A DNA stretch of 63,325 bases, the filler included, from Folioceros fuciformis (lineage: Eukaryota), in assembly GCA_049999805.1 (NCBI GenBank). It is 14 parts of 14 records of this genome, joined end to end, with 100 filler letters (N's around TTAATTAATTAA, not from the genome) between each part and the next. Parts side by side here need not be neighbours in the genome. Positions count along the whole stretch, not along the records: positions 1 to 13,576 come from JBNGIO010001949.1; 13 more parts are not named here. One strand, written 5' to 3'. Below, piece by piece: positions 1-13,865 of the stretch. The notes beneath the pieces were generated by a model. That model saw only the letters and a program-made list of their open reading frames with translations, did not search any database and was not told the origin of the DNA. Position 1 is the stretch's first letter; each line of letters opens with the position of its first letter. A program made the translations under genes and the position numbers.

Positions 1-1876
1 GGATGGGGTTTATTGAGTAGGTACGGTACATTCATTACGAGCTGGATATTTTTGCTAGGACTCATTCATAGGATGAGAAGCCGCCAATAAAGTGGAAGTT
101 TAACATGTATATGTTGCTTGGTATGACTGACGACAGTGAAGATCCTCTTGACATAGATTATGTACAGAAGATGGTTGACAAGCAAACACTGCCATATAGA
201 GTGGCTAGATGTTTATAGGTATCGTGGGATAATGCAGACAAGATATTTAAAATGTGGGAAAAGTGTGAGTTGCCAGAACAAATGACCTCGGCTACAATAG
301 GGACCAAGAAGAGGGCAAAAGCAAAACGCAAGACAAGTGACCCAGCCATTCCAAGTACATCTTCGTACGTTTCTGAGGATAACATTAGAAATCTATCAGC
401 GATGCAAGCCAGACTGTGGAGAGCCTTTCAAGGCGTCCCAGTAGGTGTGAAGGGAGAGGAGATGCTAATTGCTATGACACAAAAAGTTATTCAAGGAAAG
501 CTTCAGTTGAAAGACATGGACATTGAAGTTGGGAAGAAGAAGAAGATCCATTTGATTCAACATGCTTTCATAATTGCAATGAAGTCTTCCATATTCGAAG
601 AAGCGGAAGCTACGTTTCCGAAACACACTAAGGATGACCACCTTTTGAAGTTCCAAACAACCTTCATAAAAGTTGTAAGAAACTTTCTAGACTAGTGCTA
701 GAAGACACACTAATGGGTTCAATTCTTTTTGCAAAATCAGAAGATATAACGAACTTGGAGTCCTTGCCGAAGCCTTTCTAGGATTTTGTTTATTCGACAA
801 AGACCTGGAAAAGGATTGAAGAAGACAAGCAAAAGTCGGCCGACACCGATATGGACATAGGCTTATCGGACTTCAGAGTACCGGCCCGCAACACAAAGGT
901 GAAATATCAAGTTATTCAACGGAATGTTATGGAAATGAAGGCATTTCTTATCAAACACCCGTATACGCTGTTATTTATGGACTTGCATCGAGGGCTTCAG
1001 CGTCATAAATATAACAAACAAATGAATATCGTAAAGTTGGATGAAATGATAAGAGGATTCAGCGAATGCACATCGAGTAATATTTTCAAAGTTATTCTCA
1101 TGCATGGACTTGATCTCAATTCGGCAGCAAGGGAGGCGCTATGACCATGGTGTAAGAAGGGGAGTATACAAACTTTGATATGGGAGAAGACAAACATACC
1201 CCCAAACGAAGGAGTAGTTGAAACAGTTGAATATTTAACTGTTAAAAGTGCAGTGCAAACCGAGGCCCAAGAGTCGAAGGCTCCACTTTTTGCTAATCCA
1301 GGGTTTCTCTTACCACAGGTTATAAGGCATGGAGTGGTGGTGAAGAAGCATCTTTTCCATTCTGCAGATGCTCATGTCATCTCTTTGTACCAGAAACCAT
1401 TAGGGCTGATGAGTATGCTCGTCAATATGTTCTCCTCTAAGGGCGACTGGGTGGTGGATGCATGCGGAGGCTTTGGGTCTCTTCTTCAAAGTGCAGTTCA
1501 AAATGGAAGTCATGTGGTAGTAATCGATTTCGACATGAGAAGCACTACATATATTATGCAGCGGATTCTTGGTATAGGTTCTTTGCTTGACTCCGATGAA
1601 GAGATTACTACGGAATCCTTCAAACATGGACTATCAAAGTTATGGGCAAAAGAAGTGTGCGGCGATGGTAGTGTTGACTACAAAATGCAAGTGTATAGTC
1701 TCTTAGGGAAGAAAGGAGAGGTGCTATCCCTAAACGATGATAGGCTAATAGAGAACGGTTATGCTATTACGGTGTGGGATGAGATTTGTACTATACCGCC
1801 CCAAACAGTAGACAACCCCCACTTTTTTGTGCTAGAGGTGGAAGGCGATGACTTTGGTGACACATATGCTCAATGA
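1..1876 (+). pseudogene. Decayed long ORF (>600 codons, 5' end outside window) with C-terminal beta-class N4C/N6A DNA amino-methyltransferase-like domain; probably part of a mobile element
   Basis: Frame 3 reads from 3 to about 680 with TAG stops at 18, 69 and 216. After one frameshift, frame 2 reads to 1876 with TAG 779 and TGA 1142. Motif order resembles N6_N4_Mtase: LLFMDLHRG (degenerate motif IV, 980-991), IWEKTN, YQKPLGLMSMLVNMFSSKGDWVVDACGGFGS (motif X-I, about 1388-1480), VVIDFD (motif II). Confidence 0.65.
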
Positions 1877-2259
1877 TTGATTTTGAGGCGAACTAGGATG
1901 ACCTTGTTTTCGTTTGAGCCTGTCGTCATGAACATCAACATGGTATCTTTCAAATAGGTTTGAGATGAGGTATTCTACCGGCGCACCACATTCAACAGAC
2001 TCAAAACCTCAAGTATTTTTAAGAACACTCAAATTGTGGACTTAGTAGTTTTTGTGTTAGTTAAGTTTTTGGAATTAAAAAATTATGAAAACATATCGAC
2101 AACCTTAATGTTTAGGAGAAAAGATAAATGTGGATATGGAGCACGGATCAAACCAAATTCAAAATGCGCAAAACGGGCTTTATGGAATCCACCCGCTTTG
2201 ATCAGACCTTGTTTTGATCAAACTGTTATGATCTCTCCAAGCACTTGCATAACCCCAAC

Positions 2260-2302
2260 TATTGAAATTTCTTAGACTTGACAAGTCTAAGAAATTTCAA
2301 TA
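2260..2302. repeat. Perfect 21-bp inverted repeat with 1-nt spacer
   Basis: tattgaaatttcttagacttg-a-caagtctaagaaatttcaata. Confidence 0.9.
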
Positions 2303-2439
2303 CAAAATTTGTCAACTAACAAATTTCAAAGGCTTGTCAACTAATGGATTTCTTTCTAACAATGTAAGAAAGGCTTGAGATAGAGCAACAGTCTCAATGA
2401 GGTAACCTAGCCACTATGCAAAGTAGAAAAAAAGAAAGA

Positions 2440-2930
2440 ATGTGCTTTGCAGATTGCAGCTACATAATGTGGTTGAGAATTGTGGTTGTAGATTGTGCTC
2501 CCATATTGTACTTGTACGATGTAGTTGTACATTGCAATCTTAAATTTCAGTTGCATATTAATTGTGATCGAAGATCGCATTTGCACATGACCTTATAGCG
2601 TGTGATCGCAAAGTGTACATATAGAGTGTATTTTCAAATTGTAGTTGCAGTTTGTGGTTGCTTAGTGTACTTGTAGGATGTAAGTGTGGCTTATGGTTCA
2701 TAATTGTGGTTGCAAATTCTAGATGGTAATTGTAGTGGCAACCTTAGGATGCAAATTATGCTAACAATTTGGGCATGCACTTTGCGGTTGCGTTGTGCTT
2801 TGCAAGTTAAAGTTACAAATGGCTATGCACTTTGCAATTCCGTTTTGGCATGCACCTTGCAATTGTCTTTAGCCTTTGCACATTGCAATGAACCTTTGTC
2901 TACACATTGTAGAACCTTTTTGCGTTGAAA
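2440..2930. repeat. Degenerate TTGCA/TTGTG-rich tandem repeat
   Basis: Recurrent ttgca, gttgt and tgtgg words; no credible ORF. Confidence 0.45.
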
Positions 2931-2979
2931 CTGATTGGAGGTACTGAGAGTGATTTATTCACACCCCTTGTGTGTTCTG

Positions 2980-3620
2980 TGCAAGCACTACAAGTCATCT
3001 GCGACAACGCATATGTGAAGAGCTTAGAGGGTATGGACTACCTCTGTAATATGTATTGCTTGCATCTAGCCTTGATAATGTTTGTGCGGGGAGTGTAGGA
3101 GTAGGATGGAGCCCTTAGAGACCTACCCACACTTGTGGATTGAGTAGGAGGCCACTCCATGGGCATGGACATGCATTTCTCTTCTTTGCTCTCTTCAATA
3201 GTGTGGGGTCTCCACAATGGTGTTAGTGGGGTTGTGGTTTGGGGTGAATCCTTCTATGCCATTGACTTGCCCTCATGGGCTATGGAATAAAGAAAGTGGA
3301 TAGACAAGAAAGTGTGCAGGCCATATCCCGTTGCACTCTCACTTGGTGGTGACGAAAGCGGCCAGTCTTGTGTACAAAAAGCGCGAAGGGGACATCCCCT
3401 TGTTCTCTTCACATGAAATCAAAACCAGCTAGGTTTGCCGAGTGGCTTGATTCATTCAGTACCAGGCATATGGTGAGAGTGAGTGGTGAAACCCCATGAA
3501 TGATGAAAGCCTAGAAAAGGTTATGCAACAACTAGGATGTGTTAGAAAAGAAATGAGATGGAGCGGCTGTGCTAGAAAAGTAATGTCCCAATAAGTTGCT
3601 TTGTCCCATTGAAGGCTTAC
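2980..3620 (+). mobile_element. Degraded 3' end of an L1-type LINE (zf-RVT region)
   Basis: Frame-shifted translation GLPL*YVLLASSLDNVC...EPLETYPHLWIE*EATPWAW resembles the LINE C-terminal zinc-finger pattern (ET..HL...C...W). Confidence 0.4.
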
Positions 3621-4296
3621 ATAGCAGCATACTACCAATGCGATTAGGGTAGTTATACTAAAAAATTAGGATCGTATGCAAAACTATAAAACTTTGTATG
3701 ACATAACCCTTGACCATATCCCTATTCCATAGTATCCCATGTAAATCGTAACTATCAGAACAGTTGCGCTCCCAAGAAAACCCATGTCCGACACGACTTA
3801 GAGAAAATTATATATCAAAAAAACTCAAAAGAGAAAAATCACTGCGACACACGGCCGCCTAGGCATGGTGGAAGGGGCCTACCCACCGAGAAAACGGTTA
3901 GCCCAATTCGCGGCAGGGCCCGGCCCGAGAGCACCAGGGTCCTTGCCCGCGATCATCGACCTGCGGCCCTGCCCTGCCCCCTCGGAGGTCGGAGTGTCAA
4001 CCAGGCTCAGAGCCCCTTTTCGTCGAGTCGATCCACGAGCCGGAGAGCCGCGATCTTCGGGCCCACAGTACTGTAGCTTGCCCTTGCCTGGAGCCCCCGT
4101 TATTTGGCACGCTCTTTCTCTGAAGTTATTTATTTTAAAAAAGAAAAAAAAGGAGGAGCCGCCGATGGCACCCAACGCTCACACTGTTGTTCCCCTCGGT
4201 GACCGCGACACAGTCAGTTCTTCGCTGCTCGTGCTCCTAAGAAAACTTAACTTCTAGGGTTATTATTGTGGTACCCTTTGTACGGTTTCAGAACCA

Positions 4297-4696
4297 TGTT
4301 AGGGTTTGAACAACTCTAATCCCTTAAGTAGTTCTTCTTCACATGCCGCGATATAAAAGGGGCCTAGGCTAGCTCTGCGGTGGATGTAATCTTGTAGAGA
4401 GGATTCAATGTATTTGAGTGGAACGAGAGCACTTTAAAGGTTTTAGGGGGAAGAAGATAGATTAGGGTTCCTGCAGGTTGTGGTAGTGTAGAGTGTATGT
4501 ACGCTAGGAGAGCTTTGGAGGAGAAGATGAAGGAGAGAAGTCAGCTTTGAGTGCGAGTTCCCTTTGAGAGGACGGGGCGTCTTCGAGGCGGTGTTTCATG
4601 TGGTTCTGCTATTCCTTTCTTTTAAGTGCCTCATCCCACTCATTGGAGTATTCAGGAAGGTGGACGCATCAGGAAAAACATTCTAAAGGCATAACA
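4297..4696 (+). mobile_element. LTR-like sequence (TGTTA...TAACA)
   Basis: Inverted termini, internal TATAAAAGG and GA-rich tract; no target-site duplication found. Confidence 0.35.
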
Positions 4697-6295
4697 GTAT
4701 GTACCAAGAGGAGAGTCCGGGAGAGTCAGGCGACTTAGTAGTAGCCGTAGCACGAGCGCGGCACACCTCGTGTCAAAAGTTTTCACATAACACGAGAAAA
4801 TGAGGTCTGTTCGCGCCGGTCGATGCTAGCTAAACTTCATTTCACGGCCAGAAACCCTAAAATTGACGCCGATTCTAGGGCTTCCTGATCCCTTCTCGTA
4901 GCACTATATGCGCGGATTCGGCTCCTCGACTGTCGTCCATCTGGGGTTCCGGTTTCCAGCGAGTTCGCGCCCAGGTCCGTGGGCCTGTGTGTTGTCGCTT
5001 TGTTATTGATGTCGTGCGGATCGCCATCGTGAGTGCTTCTGGCAGAATTGAAGTAGTCTTGGTTCGCGCTTGGTGCAAGTGATGCAATGTTAATGTCAGT
5101 CTCGCGTTCTTGGCCTGTTAGTATAATCTGTAGTGGTCTGCTCGTCTGTGGCCAGCGTCTGGTTTTCTGTCACAACGGATGTGTCGGTGCAGAGCTTGTG
5201 CAATTGATGTGAAGCAAGAATAGGGACATCTCAGTGCCTTACGTGCCATGATGACTTTTCTATGGGAATCTCTCTGATGCACCAGCTCTCGCCTTCATAG
5301 CCGGCTTTTGTCGTCTGTGCAGGTGTTGTGGGCTTTCTGAACGATGGCCAAGTGCATGTGACTGATGCGCCCTCCTTTCGTCGGCCGCTTGACACTTGGT
5401 CCTATACCCTGACACATCTTCGTCTGGTCTTAGCAAACAATCTGTGAGGTCTGACGCTTCCCATGGTGATTGATGCGTAGGTTGTCAGGATGAGCTGATT
5501 GCAAAGGATTTGCGAGGTTTTTCGATCTGCTGAGTCCCCTGACAACCACCAGGTCTCTCCCCCCAAGGATATGGTGATACATGTCGTAGACATTCTCTGG
5601 CATACTGAGGACTTGCTTTGTTCCCATGTCACAGTGCTCTTCAGGGCAACTACCATTGCCCATATGTACGTGACCTAACTGCTACGTGTCCGGTTTCTCG
5701 ACCTTCGCAATTTACCACTTGCTTTGGAACAAAGCACAAATTCCCAATTCCATGGCAAGTTCCAATTCCAAGGACTTCATCTCTGCCATCTTTGCCAACC
5801 ACGTGCGAGACCCCGGGTTTTGAACTTCATCTTCTTACGATCACTCTCGGAATAAGGTTTCGTTGTCCAGACCCGCACCTGGAATGAAGCTCGAGTATAG
5901 GCACGCTGCACCCTTCACCGTAGTAAGCTTTTGGGTTACTGAAACGCGTTCTCTGAAATTACAGACATGGCGGACTGGAAACCACGCCGGCCTCCAGGCT
6001 GCTGTTTCGAGCTGAGCTGCATTGGCTTGAGACAAGTTGCTCCGAGCTGAGCTGCTGTAATCTCACGACAACCTGCTCCTACGAGTTTAGCTGCTAAGGC
6101 TTAAGCCGAAACAAGCGGGTGGCCCTGGTAAAGCACTACCTTCGAGCCGAGCTGAGGTGAGGTGAGCTTCTCGCCCGTTCGAGCTCGGCTGCTAAGGATT
6201 CCGAAATCAACTGAGCTTCATTGCTCGGTCGAGCTTGGCTGCGTATGCACCACACACAGTGTACTATACGCACTAATTCCTAAAATGACCTGTCG

Positions 6296-6533
6296 TGAGA
6301 GGTGGGGTGCACCAGGTAGTGAAGGAATGCATTACCTTTTTACATTTAATTTGGGTCCCCTGAAAGAGGTGGGGTGCGCCAGGCAGTGGAAGTAATGCAA
6401 GACCTTTTTGCATTTAATTTGGGTCCCCAGAAAGAGGTGGGGTGCGCCGGGCAGTGCAAGTAATGCATCACCTTTCTGCATTTAAGCAGGGTCTCCTGAG
6501 AGAGGTGGGGTGCCCCAGGCAGAGAAAGTAATA
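6296..6533. repeat. Tandem minisatellite, about 68-bp unit x 3.5
   Basis: agaggtggggtgc...gtaatgca...ccttt..gcatttaa...gggtc recurs at about 6297, 6364, 6432 and 6500. Confidence 0.85.
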
Positions 6534-6539
6534 TTCCTA

Positions 6540-6610
6540 GTGTAGCTGCCATGTATTCAGATTCGGTAGAGGAGAGGGAATGGTTGTCTGCCGCTTGGAT
6601 CCTAATCAAT
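6540..6610 (-). mobile_element. Ty1/Copia RNase H remnant
   Basis: SLSSTESEYMAAT motif. Confidence 0.55.
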
Positions 6611-7513
6611 GGCTGCCTCACATAGCATCAAGCGTTGTGACCTCAAGAAAGCCATGACTGGTGTAATATTTGCTTCCACCATTGATCACATATGGTAATA
6701 GGGAGTTTCAAAAATAGTAAGGAAAGACGATAGAAGACTTTGAAGATAAGATAAGCTATAGCCATGCTATAATTAGAGTCTGATGCTTCTTGTGAAGCCT
6801 AAAAGCTCCCAACTCCTTGCGTATCTGTTTGATGCATGCAAGGTACGCCTGCTCCTAAGTATCCCCAGTGCAGGCTTGTTTAGCAGGTTTGAGTGACTGT
6901 CTCATGAGTTACACATCACGGCACCTGCCGGCCATAGTACTCCATGATCTGATGAAGAATGTGCATCTTCTTGGACAAGAGGACCGCAAGAGAATCACAG
7001 ACAAGGTCTGTGGTGCAACTGAATTGCAAGGTAGGTAGAAAGTGCTGAAGTAAGTAGACATAACATATCCGAAGTTTTACAAGTTCCTACAGTTTGCAGT
7101 TTGGCAGCTTGTCAGCAGCATTGCCTTGTTTGTCAGGGAACAAAGATGCAGTGTAGAGAGGTTGACCTGCCCAAGAGTGGCGGCCCTGACAGTGTCAAGG
7201 CTCCACACGGTGCAGGCTTCTGCATTGGAATCAGCCTTCTACCCACCTGCTGAACTCTCCTAACCCCGACCTTGTGCAATTGTTTGTACACCACACGCAG
7301 AGTGTGTCCGTGTCCGTGAGATACAGTTTAGAAGCCTGCTACACTGAGCCCCTGAAATCCTGAGGGATGGTATGAACGAATGGAACAAAATTTGAAGAGG
7401 CGGCGAGGGCTAAACCTATTATGATACACCAGTTCTCAACCCAATGCCAATGCCAATGGCAAGCTCGCAGAGAGGCTCAGGAATGAAATGGAGAATCGGG
7501 CAATGCTCGGTCT

Positions 7514-7996
7514 TCACAAGGCGTCCACTTCCGGGATGGTGGAGAGGGAGGAGACCCAACTCTGCCGGGACCCAGCGCGCCGCCTTGGTCCCGGCGCTGA
7601 ATTCTGCAGCGGTTTCCGCGTGGGAACCGTGCTCCGCTTCAGGACAGGCGAGAGGCTCCCGACGCCAGCTTCCCGCAGGATCCTGGCCATGTGCTCCTTG
7701 GAGATGATGAATTGCTGTGACTTGTGCAGAGAGCGCACCGGGGACGGCTTCTCCAGCAAGAAGTAGGTGGTGCCGCCTTCCAGGAAGGCGTCCGGGGCGA
7801 GCATTCTGCCCTGCTGCCGCCGCAGCAGGGCCACGGCCGGGAAGATGGTGTAGCCCGGGTACGTCACCAGGAGCTCGCTGCACTTAATCCTGTTGGGAAA
7901 TTCCAAAACCGCCCCGTCCTGCAGCAGGATTGTCACCGCCGCATTTCTCCCCGCGCCCGCCTTCCTCAGAAACCTGAACAATCCTCCAGCCTCCAT
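7514..7996 (-). CDS. DUF4228 / PADRE-domain protein (copy 1), intronless
   Basis: VTILLQDGAVLEF...IKCSELLVTYPGY...LEGGTTYFLL and C-terminal WVSSLSTIPE signature. Confidence 0.85.
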   Translation of the reverse strand: MEAGGLFRFLRKAGAGRNAAVTILLQDGAVLEFPNRIKCSELLVTYPGYTIFPAVALLRRQQGRMLAPDAFLEGGTTYFLLEKPSPVRSLHKSQQFIISKEHMARILREAGVGSLSPVLKRSTVPTRKPLQNSAPGPRRRAGSRQSWVSSLSTIPEVDAL

Positions 7997-9564
7997 CGAT
8001 GTGGCAGCGTTGGATGCTGGTGGGCTGTTCTGTTCCGCGCTGCTCGTTTCTGTTCCCTTCGATGGAGGACGCCTTGGACTGAGCTGGGAGCGGGAGGAGT
8101 CGGAACTGCAAAGGCTGGGAGAGGACGCGGCATTTGTAATGGGCTGGGAGCTGGAGAAGAGCTGTCCAGGAAACCCCGAGCAACCAGGATTCTCAAGGAA
8201 AAACTAAATCCGAATCCTGGGAAAGCGGAATCGGAGCCTCCCGTATACGCGGTGCCATGTAAATGTGTCTGTGGCTGTTGGAGTTTACTATATGCATTCC
8301 AAAGGAGCACAAAGTAACGCCAATAAAATCGCAATCGCCGCCGACTCCCAGCGAGAGACGCCACTCAAGCCCAACAAAATCTAATCGGCTCTTTTCCGAA
8401 GAGCCGATGAAGCTCGGCCCTCAACGCTTTCAAGAAGCAGCCACTCGGGTATTGAGCTCCACCTCCTGATACCTCGCTGCTTCATGCTTAAATGGGCTGT
8501 CTCCCTCGCCATTTTTGCCGCCACAATTGGGGAGCGCCGACAATCTGGAATGGTTAATCATATGGTAGTCGTCGAGTCGAGACCATTTTTAGTATGCAAG
8601 TCAAGTCCGGCACTTACAACTCTGATTGTAACAAGCTGCTGAATGTGGACACATCTAGCACCTTACCCGCAGATTGCTCATACATGTCTCCGCGTTCATC
8701 TCTCACCTTGGGAGTTGTCTTCCCCATTAGTCTAGAGTAGTGTGTTCTATCACAGGCTCCGGGAAATGTTGCTACTCCAATGTGTAAAACATGCTTCTTC
8801 CATTTCCACTCATGGGAAGCCTCATTCCATGGGTCAAAAACGATCGACGCAGGGGAGCATCAGATTTTATCAGATGGAGCGCGTGAGTGTGAACAGAGAG
8901 GGCACTGGAGTGAAGGATTCGATGGCATTATCCATGTGTGCATGCACACATGTGCATACATGGAGACATACAGCTGCACACCACACGGACTGGTCTTCGA
9001 AGGGTAGGGACAGCCACTGCCGCGGCGGCTGGCATGAAGTTCATGTGCGGTGGGTCCAAGTCGGCATGTGCAGTCGTGTCCACACGTGATGACTCTCCGA
9101 TTTCTGAATCACCAGGTCCAGACCGACATGTACTTAAAAATGTGAACCTTCACAGAATGGTCCAAGGTCTCGAGACTACGTGGGCGGGCAGAGCCGGGAT
9201 TGGCTTCCCTGACGCCCATCTCACCAATCCGGGGACTGGTTGCTGTTGAGATGTCGTCAGAGGCCGTACAGCCCTGGCGGCAGCTGGAGCAGGGCACTAG
9301 TAATGGGTGGAGCTAGTCGAAGGGATGTGGTCCGTTGGGATCCGGAGCAGCCTACTCTGGGCTTTGTCAGAAGCTTAAAAATGGCTTGCCCATTGTTACA
9401 TACCTTAGCTTAACGCTTGCTGGACAGGTGTACACCTGTTCATTACACAAGAGGGGAAACGGTGCAAGAGCAAAATGTACAACTCCCGAGCACAAATAGA
9501 ACAGCTTCCAGGCTTCCAGCCTAGCCATCACTAATTCGCGAGTGGAAGCACTGTACCAATCAGC

Positions 9565-10086
9565 TCATACAGGAGCAATTTCAGGAATGCTGCACAGCGA
9601 TGACACCCATGTGCAGTTTCCTGCTGCCGGCTTGTGCCGTCTCACTCTCATCACAGGCTCTGGATTCCGAGATTGTACGCAATTGAGGCTCCTGGGCTCG
9701 AGGGCAGGCCTGGCTGGCCTGGAGGGGCGCCTGCCGATACTTCCTGCTCCTGCCCCGCCAATGATTCTGCCAATCTGCTCCAGGCTAAAGTCCACGAGCT
9801 CTTGGCAGCAAACTCCAGATGCTGAACTCGAGGTTGAACAGGATTCGTGGCTGCAGTCTGGTAGGAGGAGGTAGATCTGCCCAGTCTCGAGAAAGCTGTC
9901 CTTGGAAACGATCCTGGCCCGCTGTTGAGGCTTACCGTGGCTAGCCAGGCATACTTTGTGAGACGGGTGGGCAGCCAGCAGCACAGAACAGCGCATTCTC
10001 CTGTGAAATTGCAACACCTTCCCATCCTTTTGCACAATGGTTACCAATCCCTTGATCCGATCCGCCGTGCCTCCCACTGTTGCCAT
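9565..10086 (-). CDS. DUF4228 / PADRE-domain protein (copy 2), intronless
   Basis: VTIVQKDGKVLQF...CSVLLAAHPSH...LETGQIYLLLP...WVSSLCSIPE; first ATG at 10086. Confidence 0.85.
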   Translation of the reverse strand: MATVGGTADRIKGLVTIVQKDGKVLQFHRRMRCSVLLAAHPSHKVCLASHGKPQQRARIVSKDSFLETGQIYLLLPDCSHESCSTSSSASGVCCQELVDFSLEQIGRIIGGAGAGSIGRRPSRPARPALEPRSLNCVQSRNPEPVMRVRRHKPAAGNCTWVSSLCSIPEIAPV

Positions 10087-11854
10087 GACCTCCGGTCCAG
10101 AGCCCACCAATTGCCAAAAAACTTAACAGCGCCTTGGCTCGGGCTCTCTTCCTCTCCCCTAACTAAGTGTGAGTTCTTGCTCTCTTCTGCCGCTCTTCTA
10201 AAGTCTGTAGACTCTTGCGCACAAGCTCTACACCACTCGCTTCTTCTTCCTCCTCTTCCTCCCTGAACTCAGCCTGTCAGCTCTTCCCCACGAGAGACTT
10301 GAAGTTGAAGCCACACTTCATCGCAATTGCACTCCCTTGCACAGATGCCAGACAACGCCCTTCCTAGAGTGCGTACCACTGTCGGTGCAAGGTTTGAGCG
10401 GCAGCTTGCAAGACTCTCCAAAGTCGTGCTCCTGGTGAGGCAAGCACTGGTTTATAAACAGACCAGTGGGAACGGCGTTAAGGAAGCCGGTTATTCTGCA
10501 GGTTCTAGAAGGACGGTGTGTCGTCCAAGAGTCTTGCTGGTCGTGACCAAAGCCAGGCGCTATTCGTCACTACAAAGTAATTGAAGGCACGAAACCCGAA
10601 GCGCCACGTCGTCATGGTCATGTCTTTGTTTGCGTCATGCTAAGCGCAAAGTCACAGTGGTGTCCATGATCTGAGCTCTAATAACAGAGTACCTGGCCGT
10701 AATGCATGCCGTTCCGGATCACTGTAATCTCACTGCAGCGTAACCGTAACTGTTTGTATTCCGCTGTCATTTATTGCGCAAGCCTGGCAAGAAACAACAA
10801 ACTGCAGTCAACCCTCCCCTGAAAAGCATCCACTTGTGCAAAGATTGGCGCTAGTGTAGAATCCCGTTGAAGGTCGAGGACGACCGCACTCCCACAGGGC
10901 TGTAGAACAAGTCACGACCGTCTTCCGCCATTCAATCTGAGGCTTTTCATGTTTTGACTACCGCGAGTGAAGGGGGGACACTGGCCCACCTGACGCAGAA
11001 GCTTCCACTTGGAGCTGGCTGGAGTCTGGCGGCCAGCCAGGTTAGGGCAGGTTAGCGCAGCGCAACATCTGGAGACAGGCCAGCGCACATGCGTTGGGTC
11101 ACCGCGTATCTAAGCCACATCGGAAACGCGCCTGAGGAGACAATTGCTTGCTGCCTTCCTGCACACCGGTGCGCACTGTATGTAGTTTTAATAACAAGAA
11201 CGCTTGACTGTAGAATGTGGCCTCCAACATTTTCCTGATGGAACAGTCTGTCCGTCATTCCCAGCAGCTGTGACCATGGCGGCAAGCTTAGATGTGAGGT
11301 GTCAGCGGAAGCAGGTGGCCGGTTCACAAGAGCAAGTAGAGTAGTAAGCAGAGGTGATGATTCAATACCCTCGCCTGATAGCAGAACTACATCCAGTGGA
11401 CAGCCTAATGTTGAGTGAAACAAACCATCCCCGTCCCTTCATTAGGGACAATTTATTGTGCTTCTGAGGGAAAAGTGTACATCTGCAAGTAGATGACAAA
11501 AGTCATCCCAAGCGACAAGAATGTTGAATGTTGGTATGTTGGAACGTTGGAATGTTAGATGCTGATGTTGATCTCCTCCTTGTCATAGCTCACGCACCTA
11601 ACTAAGCAGCCTGAGTTATATTTACACTTGAATGGCTTGCATGCCCCGAACTTAAAGACAGCTAGCACACCAGGAACAATGTCATGACACTTTCACTTGC
11701 CTGCCTACAGCAGGCAGAAATTCCACACTTGTCGGCACCAAAAAATTCGAAACCAGCACTTCAGACACCGATTCAGACCTCCATCAGCCGAAGCCTCTCA
11801 GCCTCCGCGAAAAGCATGACGGCATTGAAACCGAATCAGGTCGCAATCAGCACA

Positions 11855-12382
11855 TCATACCGGTGCAACCTCCGGGATGGACGCCAAGGACGACACCCAG
11901 GGCTGCTTGGATCTGCCCCGCCTCCGCTTTTGCCTTCTCTCCCAAGGATCCAGATACTTGAGAGCCGCAGCTTCCGAAGATCTGGCGGGCGGACTCACAT
12001 CTCTCCCTCGTTCAGAAAGAATCCTCGAAAGGTAGTCCTTAGAGATCCTGAAGCGCATTGAGGACTCCGGCGCGCTTCCCCGCGCCTCATCCGCCGATCC
12101 TCCAGGCTTGGGAAGCAGGAAGTAGGTCTCCCCCGGTTCCAGATACGACTCGCCTTGCAGCATTTTCCCCTGCTGCTTCAGCACCAGCGCACTGGCGGGG
12201 CACAACGTGTGCCCCGGGTACGAGGCCAAGAGCTCCGAACACTTGATCCTTTGCGGAAACTCCACCACATTCCCATCGTACAGCAGCACCGTCACAACCC
12301 CGGCGCCTCCATCTCCTTCCTCGCCTTCCGCGTAGCTCCACCAGATCTTTCTCGTTGTCGCAAGCATCGCACCGGCAAGCAT
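11855..12382 (-). CDS. DUF4228 / PADRE-domain protein (copy 3), intronless
   Basis: VTVLLYDGNVVEF...IKCSELLASYPGH...LEPGETYFLLP...WVSSLASIPE; first ATG 12382 (alternative 12367); TATA-like element at about 12593. Confidence 0.85.
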   Translation of the reverse strand: MLAGAMLATTRKIWWSYAEGEEGDGGAGVVTVLLYDGNVVEFPQRIKCSELLASYPGHTLCPASALVLKQQGKMLQGESYLEPGETYFLLPKPGGSADEARGSAPESSMRFRISKDYLSRILSERGRDVSPPARSSEAAALKYLDPWERRQKRRRGRSKQPWVSSLASIPEVAPV

Positions 12383-12619
12383 GGCCAGATCGCCGATCCC
12401 AACCAGTCGCACTCAAGCAGACGCAAAGTACGCCAGTTGCACCACCAGAGGCCCGCGGTAAGCAAATGACTTGACGACGTGATCTGACGCAACCCAATAA
12501 CAATCCTTTTAATCCGTCTCCAACCACTCAACTTACTCCAAATAGGTGGGTGTACAACCAATCCCGCCTCCCGTTCCTGGATATTGAACGAGTATATAAC
12601 CATTCATCTTTATTATTTA

Positions 12620-13168
12620 TCAAGAACGTACATCATAATACCATGGTCTATCATAACTATATCTAATATAACAATCTCTAACCAAAAATTGCGCCACTCG
12701 AGCAGTTGGACAGAGAATAGTCTGAAGTTGTGAAGCTACATGTTCAAGACACATCTTACATTGTGTTGGAGTGGACATTGTTTCTTTATCTTCTTGAGCA
12801 TCTTCATCCCAATTATAACAAGTTGCTACGCTCCAAAAATATTGTTTACCAAAAAGATCAGGAGTGTAATAATACGGAAGTCCCTCCGGAAAATGTAGCT
12901 CTGCTAAACCAATAAGTGAATCAAGATTACCTCGTAAGCTGAATTCAAAAGGATCAGTTAAAGCAAAATTGTTCCCACATTCATGAAACAATGGAGTTGT
13001 ATTAGGGAGAGGATCTGAAGATATTTGACAAGCATTATAACATAATATCAACAATAATAATAAGCATGCACGGTAGTGTGAATACGGTTCTATCAATTCC
13101 CATATATTTCTCCATTTCCTGCATGTAGCCATTCTTTCATATAATTCAATTGAACAAAAAAAACTCAT
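12620..13168 (-). CDS. Gnk2 / DUF26 (Stress-antifung) single-domain cysteine-rich protein, probably secreted
   Basis: Hydrophobic CLLLLLILC stretch, then PNTT..FHECG, VATC-x19-CKMC, CPTARVAQF..DCYIRYS; start is ATG 13168 or 13132. Confidence 0.75.
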   Translation of the reverse strand: MSFFCSIELYERMATCRKWRNIWELIEPYSHYRACLLLLLILCYNACQISSDPLPNTTPLFHECGNNFALTDPFEFSLRGNLDSLIGLAELHFPEGLPYYYTPDLFGKQYFWSVATCYNWDEDAQEDKETMSTPTQCKMCLEHVASQLQTILCPTARVAQFLVRDCYIRYSYDRPWYYDVRS

Positions 13169-13865
13169 GCCCAAAGTCTAACAATGATCATCACACACAA
13201 AAATTTGTAAGCTTAAAACTAGATTTCCTCAAATATTGAATATACCAGAACCTCCTAATATAACAAGGTATTAGATCTTCATACACATCAACATACTGAA
13301 GATGCTCATAGAATCTCCCCCTTTTTAAAAGCTTATGTAAAATATATAATATGTTTCAAAAATTATTTAAATATATATATATACTTATGATTTAAGTTTG
13401 AAATTTTTATATTTTAGAAAATAATATACTGATTTATAAATATGGTATTGATCAAGAACCAATTCTTGTTAAGAATCTCTAAACGAATCAATCCTTAACT
13501 TTGCATACACGGATTGTTTATGGATGGAATTGGTGAACTTTGTTGAACCAATTCAAATATTCCTCTTGTTTCGTTTNNNNNNNNNNNNNNNNNNNNNNNN
13601 NNNNNNNNNNNNNNNNNNNNTTAATTAATTAANNNNNNNNNNNNNNNNNNNNNNNNNNNNNNNNNNNNNNNNNNNNAGTTGGTTGGTTGAGGCAATTCCT
13701 TGTTATGAGGTTTGATGCTTTATGCTAGAATCTAGGTTAGACCATATATTCTATTTAACATAAGTATGTATAACCTAAAGACTTTGTAGAAAAATTAGAT
13801 GGAAGTTCATTTACTCCGTGTCAAGGGGAACAACCCGCAATGGGGAAAAGCCAAGAATGGGGTTC

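Follow-up and report, generated by a model that had tools for sequence, protein, structure and literature searches.

The window analysed here is 63,325 nt of DNA from Folioceros fuciformis (assembly GCA_049999805.1). It consists of 14 contigs joined by 13 spacers of the form N44-TTAATTAATTAA-N44 (26 runs of N), which carry stops in all frames, and has a G+C content of 48%. The first contig (1-13576, ungapped) opens on a broken coding sequence, 1-1876, that resembles a DNA amino-methyltransferase of prokaryotic type. Is this sequence a contaminant, a decayed copy of a mobile element or virus carrying its own writer of N4-methylcytosine (4mC) or N6-methyladenine (6mA), as a first-pass annotation had proposed, or part of a gene family of the plant itself? 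Taken as a whole, the evidence is very probably best explained if 1-1876 represents the 3' portion (~600 codons) of a pseudogene, a dead member of a gene family repeated in streptophytes. The locus itself is ordinary; the gene family is moderately interesting, and merits more attention than the dead copy.

The plus strand of 3-1876 translates as a decayed frame of ~224 and 378 codons with five internal stops and one frame change. The upstream frame can be read from base 3 to ~674, through TAG codons at 18-20, 69-71 and 216-218. The downstream frame runs from 638, through internal stops at 779-781 (TAG) and 1142-1144 (TGA), to a terminal TGA at 1874-1876, and the change of frame lies between 638 and 695. 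Every peptide that the annotation had quoted (YQVIQRNVMEMK, TLLFMDLHRG, IWEKTN, YQKPLGLMSMLV, DWVVDACGGFGS and HVVVIDFD) is found in the translation. The two halves were searched as separate queries, 782-1876 downstream (P0001, with X at the stop) and 3-692 upstream (P0066). By phmmer against 1.84 billion representative proteins, the downstream query returns 60 matches at E<=1e-3 and 11 at <=1e-10 (best 5.6e-25), a homology far beyond chance. The upstream query is colinear by BLASTP with residues 195-344 of P0009 (E 4e-6), 300-480 of P0025 (E 1e-7) and 1242-1406 of P0047 (E 1e-8). In these three proteins the downstream query aligns to the methyltransferase domains and the upstream query just before them. 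Because single long proteins align in order with both halves, the two broken frames derive from a single ancestral gene, which agrees with the proposal that the short open reading frames (ORFs) of this region are fragments of a single frame of more than 600 codons with five stops and one frame change.

The 5' end of the gene is not on the contig. In the relatives the N-terminal domain ends with a motif (MSFLQKVRYFHNEWVD in Adiantum, MSSIERVRFFHHEYLD in the metagenome locus L007) of the general form M-x-F-[IL]-x-K-[VI]-R-[YF]-F-H, and the first residues translated here, MGFIE*VRYIHYELD, match it; the contig begins just after that domain. This match indicates that the contig starts inside the gene and that the N-terminal domain has been cut off here. 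In a quick maximum-likelihood tree with SH-aLRT (approximate likelihood-ratio test) support, the copy falls in a clade (support 99) with P0002-P0005, P0012 and P0017. The length of its terminal branch, 2.17 where the median is 0.75, is what a pseudogene would be expected to show. Together with the five stops and the frame change, the long branch bears out the view that this copy is decayed.

A frameshift had been placed near 680. A frame change is indeed present there, but a simple coding indel does not describe it well. Intron 2 of L007, in phase 0, falls after ...EYFIAFKDW and before KPCRSKKPGEVKDIHDFPTSF. At the homologous place in the copy, after ...TTFIKV, GTAAGA occurs at 675, and an acceptor-like TCAG ends at 740, before EDITNLESLPKPF, which aligns with the ...LP..F... 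block of the relatives. Because the frame change is located at the position of this intron, it is better read as being for the most part a retained intron. However, with 675-740 removed the two frames are still one base out of register. A further 19 canonical GT/GC-AG pairs across 600-800 restore the register, but either delete conserved residues or have no pyrimidine tract. A mostly retained intron combined with a 1-nt lesion is the probable explanation. The other three introns of L007 have no counterpart in 1-1876, where the coding sequence is continuous at those places.

On the combined evidence of profiles, predicted fold and the PF01555 membership of its relatives, the 3' half is a homologue of the circularly permuted beta-class amino-methyltransferases. 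The PF01555 profile (N6_N4_Mtase, length 221) has a gathering cut-off of 26.7 bits, and nine of ten tested relatives score above it (30.0-65.7 bits; P0010 reaches 25.0). A profile made from the protein of 782-1876 and 11 relatives (A1) matches 12 PDB sequences at E<=0.01. Eleven are beta-class adenine-N6 or cytosine-N4 (N6A/N4C) DNA methyltransferases, with TTHA0409 at 1.4e-10 and M.MboIIA, M.RsrI, DpnA/M1.HpyAVI, CcrM, the rotifer N4CMT and M.BceJIV among the matches; the twelfth, a Fab chain, was rejected as spurious. The AlphaFold2 model of the 782-1876 protein (62-sequence alignment) has a predicted local distance difference test (pLDDT) value of 75.7 and a predicted template-modelling (pTM) score of 0.76, with residues 282-365 disordered. 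Its best Foldseek matches in the PDB are CcrM (E 4.7e-14), TTHA0409 (4.2e-11) and N4CMT (4.8e-11), and M.BceJIV, M.RsrI, M1.HpyAVI, M.MboIIA and M.PvuII are also among the top matches, which range from E 5e-14 to 1e-9. PHROG matches at E<=0.001 are annotated as DNA methyltransferase or methyltransferase, and the highest-ranking annotated family is phrog_67, from phages (query P0009, E 1.5e-27). A word-indexed protein search with the 1-1876 protein alone gave no match.

It is improbable that the domain is instead a generic Rossmann methyltransferase acting on RNA, proteins or small molecules. Relatives have weak secondary Pfam matches to Methyltransf_25/11, TRM5-TYW2 and Cons_hypoth95, although all of these lie under the cut-offs of their own families. 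The RNA m6A writer METTL3-METTL14 is in the fold list, but only from E ~1e-7, and every match listed to rank 37 is a DNA N6A/N4C enzyme, as are the 11 methyltransferases among the 12 profile matches. Repeated shifts to RNA in eukaryotes are noted by Iyer et al. 2016 (PMC4738411), whereas the permuted arrangement of the motifs and the W-x-K-x-N and YQKP blocks are features of PF01555. The annotation's reading of the C-terminal half as a beta-class amino-methyltransferase, with motif IV before motif I, is thus upheld by the profile and fold matches and by the relatives in PF01555; a Rossmann methyltransferase fold is predicted, and RNA or protein methyltransferases match less well. The domain assignment itself is already in databases, since the Chara and Riccia members carry the automatic UniProt name 'DNA methylase N-4/N-6 domain-containing protein'.

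The circular permutation is seen directly in the translation of 782-1876, where motif IV is N-terminal to motif I. A profile alignment to M.MboIIA sets LLVaDiPrGl on LAVIDPPYNL, and the SAM-binding half is aligned by profile to both TTHA0409 and M.MboIIA. Alignments of the family give motif IV as D-[ILAFV]-P-[YH]-G-[FLYM], unlike the textbook (D/N/S)PP(Y/F/W), and the D-L-H-R of the 1-1876 copy does not match the catalytic tetrapeptide (D/N/S)-P-P-(Y/F/W/H). All three of the nearest relatives that cover the motif (P0002, P0003 and P0004) read DLPRGL where the copy reads DLHRGL, so arginine in place of the aromatic residue is a feature of the clade and only the change from proline to histidine is private to the copy. 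In short, motif IV is D-x-P-Y-G in the family and DLPRG in the nearest clade. Both catalytic motifs had been called degenerate in this copy. For motif IV this stands in part, and for motif I it does not: C-S-G-S-G-T in the family corresponds to C-G-G-F-G-S here, with the G-x-G kept. Compared with the F-x-G-x-G expected after the Q-K-P helix, the copy matches with C for F, as do most family members. Nine positions that are invariant or nearly so in A1 (W134, K136, N138, Q204, K205, P206, W223, D226 and G232) are all kept in the copy.

These motifs allow some prediction of chemistry. Intact members would bind S-adenosylmethionine (SAM) through the YQKP...D-x-C-S-G-S-G half, and at the D-x-P-Y-G loop would methylate a flipped base on its exocyclic amine. 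A rule cited in PMC4738411 uses D or S at the start of motif IV to distinguish adenine-N6 from cytosine-N4 enzymes. Because the motif starts with D here, and not with S as in the TSPPY of the Marchantia enzyme DN4MT1, adenine-N6 seems the likelier target than cytosine-N4. The N-terminal domain would serve to hold the enzyme on nucleic acid or to load it there, a role already proposed for fusions of ParB and methyltransferase domains in phages. The 1-1876 copy itself cannot function, with no N-terminal domain on the contig, five in-frame stops, a register defect at the retained intron and the motif IV proline lost (DLHRG).

Intact members are predicted to begin with an N-terminal domain, followed by a linker that is helical and then by a PF01555-related amino-methyltransferase domain of the circularly permuted beta class. 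Long N-terminal extensions and acidic disordered tails are also found in proteins of the family. The long relatives have in common a block of ~150 residues in which P-P, R, G-G-x-H, A and H-N are invariant (alignment A4). The signatures of this block in intact members, GG-x-H-x-x-E-A-R and D-H-N, are ones that we take to be ParB motifs. Because of these signatures, and of the fusions of ParB folds to PF01555 reported from phages, a ParB/Srx fold is suspected, and the N-terminal domain is possibly ParB/Srx-like, which is a lead only. In a model of P0009, residues 113-195 form alternating strands and helices with pLDDT 50-70. The stretch homologous to 3-692, with pLDDT 60-90, is helical, in agreement with the helical region that had been predicted upstream of the methyltransferase; this linker measures ~150-250 residues. 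Four long members have no Pfam match in the N-terminal domain, and searches of long relatives with Pfam, NCBIfam and PHROGs did not find a ParB identity for it; P0009 has a weak DUF6551 match (E 0.019).

Among 30 relatives that were looked up, nine carry an organism name (one from Ginkgo biloba, two from Chara braunii, three from Riccia sorocarpa and three from Adiantum nelumboides) and the other 21 come from run or metagenome assemblies. A profile search of an organism-named collection gave 16 matches, 13 of them Adiantum 'hypothetical proteins' on different contigs, with no angiosperm and no bacterium in this thin sampling. The family is eukaryotic and mainly streptophyte, extending from a stonewort (Chara) to Ginkgo. 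A scan of metagenomes adds 80 loci. One of these, L007, holds a full gene (1368-4647) with four introns, all with canonical GT-AG ends; another, L024, holds a 5'-truncated copy. In the quick tree, Ginkgo groups with Adiantum, two Riccia proteins group together, and Chara groups with P0025.

Selection was assessed in the N-terminal domain of five metagenome loci, which may be paralogues within a single genome or derive from more than one species. Nonsynonymous differences per site (pN) are 0.04-0.11 and synonymous ones (pS) 0.38-1.0, and the ratio of the corresponding rates (dN/dS) is 0.03 and 0.09 in the two pairs for which dS could be computed. These members are or were functional proteins under strong purifying selection. 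The stretch concerned (L007:2166-2621, with homologous stretches of L045, L018, L025 and L017) has 82-93% protein identity with synonymous sites saturated (pS to 1.0), a conservation that is unusually strong for copies ~25% different in DNA.

Two proteins depart from the common architecture. P0047 of Chara braunii (1825 aa) contains two complete units of N-terminal domain, linker and methyltransferase, with Ala/Pro-rich and Glu-rich low-complexity stretches between them, which suggests tandem copies fused by gene prediction. P0053 (559 aa) is a more distant relative whose loop is a canonical D-P-P-F. It has a region that resembles the linker of the family and, at its C-terminus, a zinc finger of the MYM type (PF06467, 18 bits, below cut-off). 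It may represent a sister lineage with a different DNA-binding addition.

Domains of this type are mainly prokaryotic, and the segment is at the end of a contig, as might be the case for bacterial or phage contamination or a chimeric assembly. This explanation is scarcely credible. The same ungapped contig carries three genes of the plant PADRE family, independent contigs from two DNA runs cover 1-8000 in overlapping pieces, G+C content is 41-43% with no break in composition at 1876, and relatives have introns and are annotated in four plant or charophyte genomes. The contention that this is plant DNA is supported by these genes and relatives.

The copy number of the gene was judged from contigs of the two DNA runs, from the same sample, placed on 1-8000 at >=80% likeness. 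Run X1 places 261 contigs on this interval, of which 171 are under 90% alike. Summed contig depth ranges from 58 to 220 across 1-1869 and from 29 to 49 across 1870-2403. It is 11-15 in 3472-8000, an interval that individual contigs match with no differences. Within the gene, as many as 7 contigs (X1, X2) or 10 (X3) have a different base at a given position. With the caveat, itself a point against a repeated family, that contig depth is not copy number and that other organisms in the sample can add to it, this shows many diverged copies of the gene and ~0.5 kb of its 3' flank in its own genome. Copies at metagenome loci have 68-87% nucleotide identity across the gene, and their homology ends at the stop codon except for one 130-nt piece ~600 bp downstream. 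The 1-1876 copy shares with these loci, at the nucleotide level, only a stretch of 27 nt, and tblastn finds no second copy of the gene within the window. Being multi-copy and dispersed, the family behaves like a repeat. The annotation's claim of a repeated family is accordingly well founded, given the diverged contigs in the plant's own genome and the 13 Adiantum gene models, which are near-identical but rearranged.

Two side observations concern the repeated region. The sequence at 2260-2302 is a perfect palindrome, its 21-nt arms separated by a single nucleotide (TATTGAAATTTCTTAGACTTG / CAAGTCTAAGAAATTTCAATA), in the 3' flank that is repeated with the gene, ~400 bp beyond the stop codon. A Helitron reading of this palindrome was dropped; the sequence is A+T-rich and the repeat depth has no clean end there. 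Separately, run X3, which shares its sample with the DNA runs, differs from 1-8000 mostly by C>T (426) and G>A (126), and at many places the difference is found in all of its contigs. This run looks like a bisulfite or enzymatically converted library, in which case methylation data for the repeat family already exist.

The repeat-like behaviour can be read in more than one way. It is unlikely that the copy is a cargo or core gene of a large mobile element or endogenised DNA virus (a giant virus, a Polinton-like element or an unknown transposon) with the remainder upstream of the contig start. Such an origin would suit a family that is multi-copy and dispersed, with many truncated or rearranged copies, and whose best annotated profile matches are phage methyltransferase families. 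A language-model atlas places the N-terminal domain near fungal DUF3723 clusters (a lead only), and DUF3723 is carried on Starship elements. The contig starts inside the gene, so that the upstream neighbourhood is outside it, and the repeat extends ~500 bp past the stop codon and includes the palindrome. Fusions of a ParB fold with PF01555 are, moreover, reported to be enriched in phages and prophages (PMC12704722). However, no transposase, integrase, replication or capsid gene and no termini are found within 1-13576 (the upstream side of the gene being beyond the contig), and contig 1 has neither terminal inverted repeats nor long direct repeats. L007 has no other ORF of >=100 aa with a mobile or viral domain in 1.3 kb upstream and 2 kb downstream, and the neighbour of the gene in L024 is an ordinary short-chain dehydrogenase-like ORF. 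Homology between copies stops at the stop codon, apart from the 130-nt piece already mentioned, and the flanks of L007 have no similarity to contig 1-13576. A scan of a viral contig collection gave no close relative, only two loci weakly matching the motif I stretch alone (E 6e-7 and 1e-5). Spliceosomal introns and strong purifying selection in the relatives point the same way. The Adiantum model P0080 is fused to an integrase-core domain (PF00665), which looks like a neighbouring retroelement joined by gene prediction. With no transposase, integrase or termini found, the interpretation as a mobile element or virus is unproven. The inspection of flanks that the annotation had recommended gave no transposase, integrase or termini beside the copies examined, and its view of a mobile-element or virus-like family is not borne out: L007 and L024 have no linked machinery, contig 1 has no terminal repeats, and relatives contain introns and show dN/dS <=0.09.

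Alternatively, this may be an ordinary family of host genes that came from bacteria or phages long ago, became fixed in early streptophytes and was enlarged by tandem and segmental duplication, with 1-1876 as a dead duplicate. This has a probability somewhat short of even. Introns and strong purifying selection are what it predicts, as is a presence from Chara to Ginkgo with the tree groupings described above, and the two complete units in P0047 suggest tandem copies. It accounts less well for the 13 near-identical, rearranged models on different Adiantum contigs, and the many contigs in the plant's own genome that are 80-95% alike resemble the proliferation of a repeat more than the growth of a gene family. 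It would also require repeated loss, as no organism-named angiosperm member is found, although sampling is weak.

Several results, beyond the caveat on contig depth, weigh against the interpretation of 1-1876 as a dead member of a repeated amino-methyltransferase family. The copy itself scores below the PF01555 cut-off (23.4 bits for 782-1876 and 23.8 bits for 1145-1873), so the PF01555 search that had been proposed succeeds for nine of the ten relatives and fails for the copy, and its direct match is limited to the SAM-binding half (profile positions 163-213 of 221). The DLPRG of the nearest clade has no aromatic residue, and in that clade even intact proteins may lack activity or have another function. 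For the N-terminal domain, a profile search against the PDB gave no ParB match, DUF6551 matches in Pfam are weak and limited to 5 of 12 domain sequences (best E 0.033), and the atlas neighbours are DUF3723 (fungal), ParB_N and DUF6551 clusters at 0.91-0.95, which are leads only.

DNA amino-methylation (6mA and 4mC) in plants and animals is disputed. To our knowledge, very few eukaryotic writers of prokaryotic type are known. Examples are the rotifer N4CMT (PMC8885841) and Marchantia DN4MT1 (bioRxiv 10.1101/2021.02.12.428880). The canonical beta-class PF01555 enzymes (CcrM, M.RsrI, M.MboIIA, M1.HpyAVI, TTHA0409 and M.PvuII) have the fold of the 782-1876 model and share with the family the order motif IV, W-x-K block, QKP block, motif I. 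They differ in carrying (D/N/S)PP(Y/F/W) where the family has D-x-P-Y-G, the nearest clade DLPRG and the copy DLHRG. Furthermore, the genes of the family belong to eukaryotes and contain introns, their products have a long extension at the N-terminus and acidic disordered tails, and the 1-1876 copy is broken and below the Pfam cut-off. The fusions of the ParB-CTPase fold with PF01555 that are reported as enriched in phages and prophages (PMC12704722) may have the same architecture, a GG-x-H-x-x-x-A-R domain before a permuted amino-methyltransferase, and ParB-Tls loci are described in PMC4738411. In the plant family, by contrast, the ParB fold is a lead only, a helical linker is present and the host is a plant or charophyte nucleus; in the 1-1876 copy the N-terminal domain is cut off by the contig end.

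Among eukaryotic enzymes, Marchantia MpDN4MT1a/b are writers of 4mC in sperm that carry TSPPY and cluster with prokaryotic N4C enzymes (bioRxiv 10.1101/2021.02.12.428880). Like members of the present family, DN4MT1 is a land-plant nuclear gene of prokaryotic amino-methyltransferase ancestry, and another liverwort, Riccia, has members of the family. However, compared by its description only, its TSPPY contrasts with the D-[IVA]-P-Y-G of the family, including the three Riccia members. The bdelloid N4CMT (8s9m/8s9n/8s9o) is also a eukaryotic, intron-bearing, permuted PF01555 enzyme of bacterial origin. It matches the 782-1876 model in structure (E 5e-11) at a sequence identity of 13-14% (Foldseek), but it has a C-terminal chromodomain, a motif of the 4mC type and a single allelic pair, and Rodriguez et al. 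2022 (PMC8885841) state that it has no eukaryotic homologues. Iyer, Zhang and Aravind 2016 (PMC4738411) describe six eukaryotic acquisitions of M.MboIIA/DpnA-like enzymes and state that few N6A-methyltransferases are seen in land plants. Their group-1 N6A clades share with the family a scenario of independent acquisition from prokaryotes or phages, unusual strand-4 motifs and lineage-specific expansions, but in the part of that text considered none of the six clades is from land plants or charophytes with the architecture of the family.

No description of the plant family was found in the literature by title or by the start of the abstract, and supplements to PMC4738411 and PMC8885841 may list such proteins. 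What appears to be new is a streptophyte lineage of permuted amino-methyltransferases that is intron-bearing, under selection and repeat-like, with an altered catalytic loop and an extra N-terminal domain. This family is little studied, and a dead locus leads to it: the same enzyme fold with an unusual active-site motif, in genes that contain introns and are selected, is repeated many times in two genomes or more. Intact members, if active, are candidate plant writers of 6mA or 4mC, and the methylomes of these lineages can be read against them; if they are inactive, a phage-type fusion protein has been kept for another role. Either way, genome annotation of non-flowering plants should allow for such copies and not treat them as contaminants.

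A more far-reaching proposal is that the family constitutes an undescribed, phage-derived amino-methylation system of streptophytes, and this is a long shot. In such a system a ParB-like loader fused to a permuted D-x-P-Y-G methyltransferase would have been maintained by selection in Chara, liverworts, ferns and Ginkgo, and would methylate nuclear DNA (6mA or 4mC, for instance in repeats or gametes) alongside the DN4MT1 system of Marchantia. The repeat-like spread would be that of a selfish element marking its own DNA, and 1-1876 would be a fossil. Chara, liverworts, ferns and Ginkgo are lineages with motile sperm.

Table 1. Coordinates of features in the window, with the evidence for each
Feature	Position	Strand	Evidence
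Decayed upstream coding segment, the helical linker of long relatives	1..674	+	Frame, stops, BLASTP colinearity
Probable retained intron, 66 nt (GTAAGA ... TCAG)	675..740	+	Position matches phase-0 intron 2 of L007
Decayed methyltransferase-domain segment and disordered C-terminal tail	741..1876	+	phmmer, PF01555 below cut-off, AlphaFold2, Foldseek
Motif IV remnant D-L-H-R-G (residues 67-71 of the 782-1876 translation)	980..994	+	Alignments A1 and A3
Conserved I-W-E-K-T-N block	1178..1195	+	Alignment; W134, K136 and N138 invariant or nearly so in the family
SAM-binding half, Y-Q-K-P (1388-1399) to D-A-C-G-G-F-G-S (1457-1480, residues 226-233)	1388..1480	+	
3' flank repeated together with the ORF, depth 29-49	1877..2403	.	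Contig depth
Three tandem plant PADRE ORFs (PF14009, formerly DUF4228)	7514-8203, 9565-10122, 11855-12412	-	47.8-64.1 bits, cut-off 29.6
Artificial spacer N44-TTAATTAATTAA-N44	13577-13676 and 12 further places		

The rest of contig 1 contains several features of its own. Degenerate TGCA-rich repeats of ~25 nt occupy 2400-3470, with a tandem array of 25-nt units at 2820-2889, the only array that a tandem-repeat search of the flanks found. A separate repeat at 2938-3204 reaches a summed contig depth of 82 against a baseline of 11-15, and its contigs have rearranged joints. Between the pseudogene and the PADRE genes, 6297-6532 is a tandem array of 3-4 units of 67-68 nt with 81-91% identity. Contigs of a run guessed to be RNA fall on 2643-2709, 3082-3170 and 4947-8000 only, with none on 1-1876, and are uninformative on expression of the pseudogene. 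Over 4947-8000 this run, which has the same species label, shows spliced joints at 5397-5480 and 5854-5963 with GT..AG ends and a depth of 45-364. The spliced joints and high depth indicate that an expressed, intron-bearing transcript overlaps or adjoins the first PADRE ORF. On the minus strand at 12620-13177, adjoining the A+T-rich end of the contig, is a 185-aa ORF with a Stress-antifung match (DUF26, PF01657) of 21.1 bits, below the cut-off of 25.

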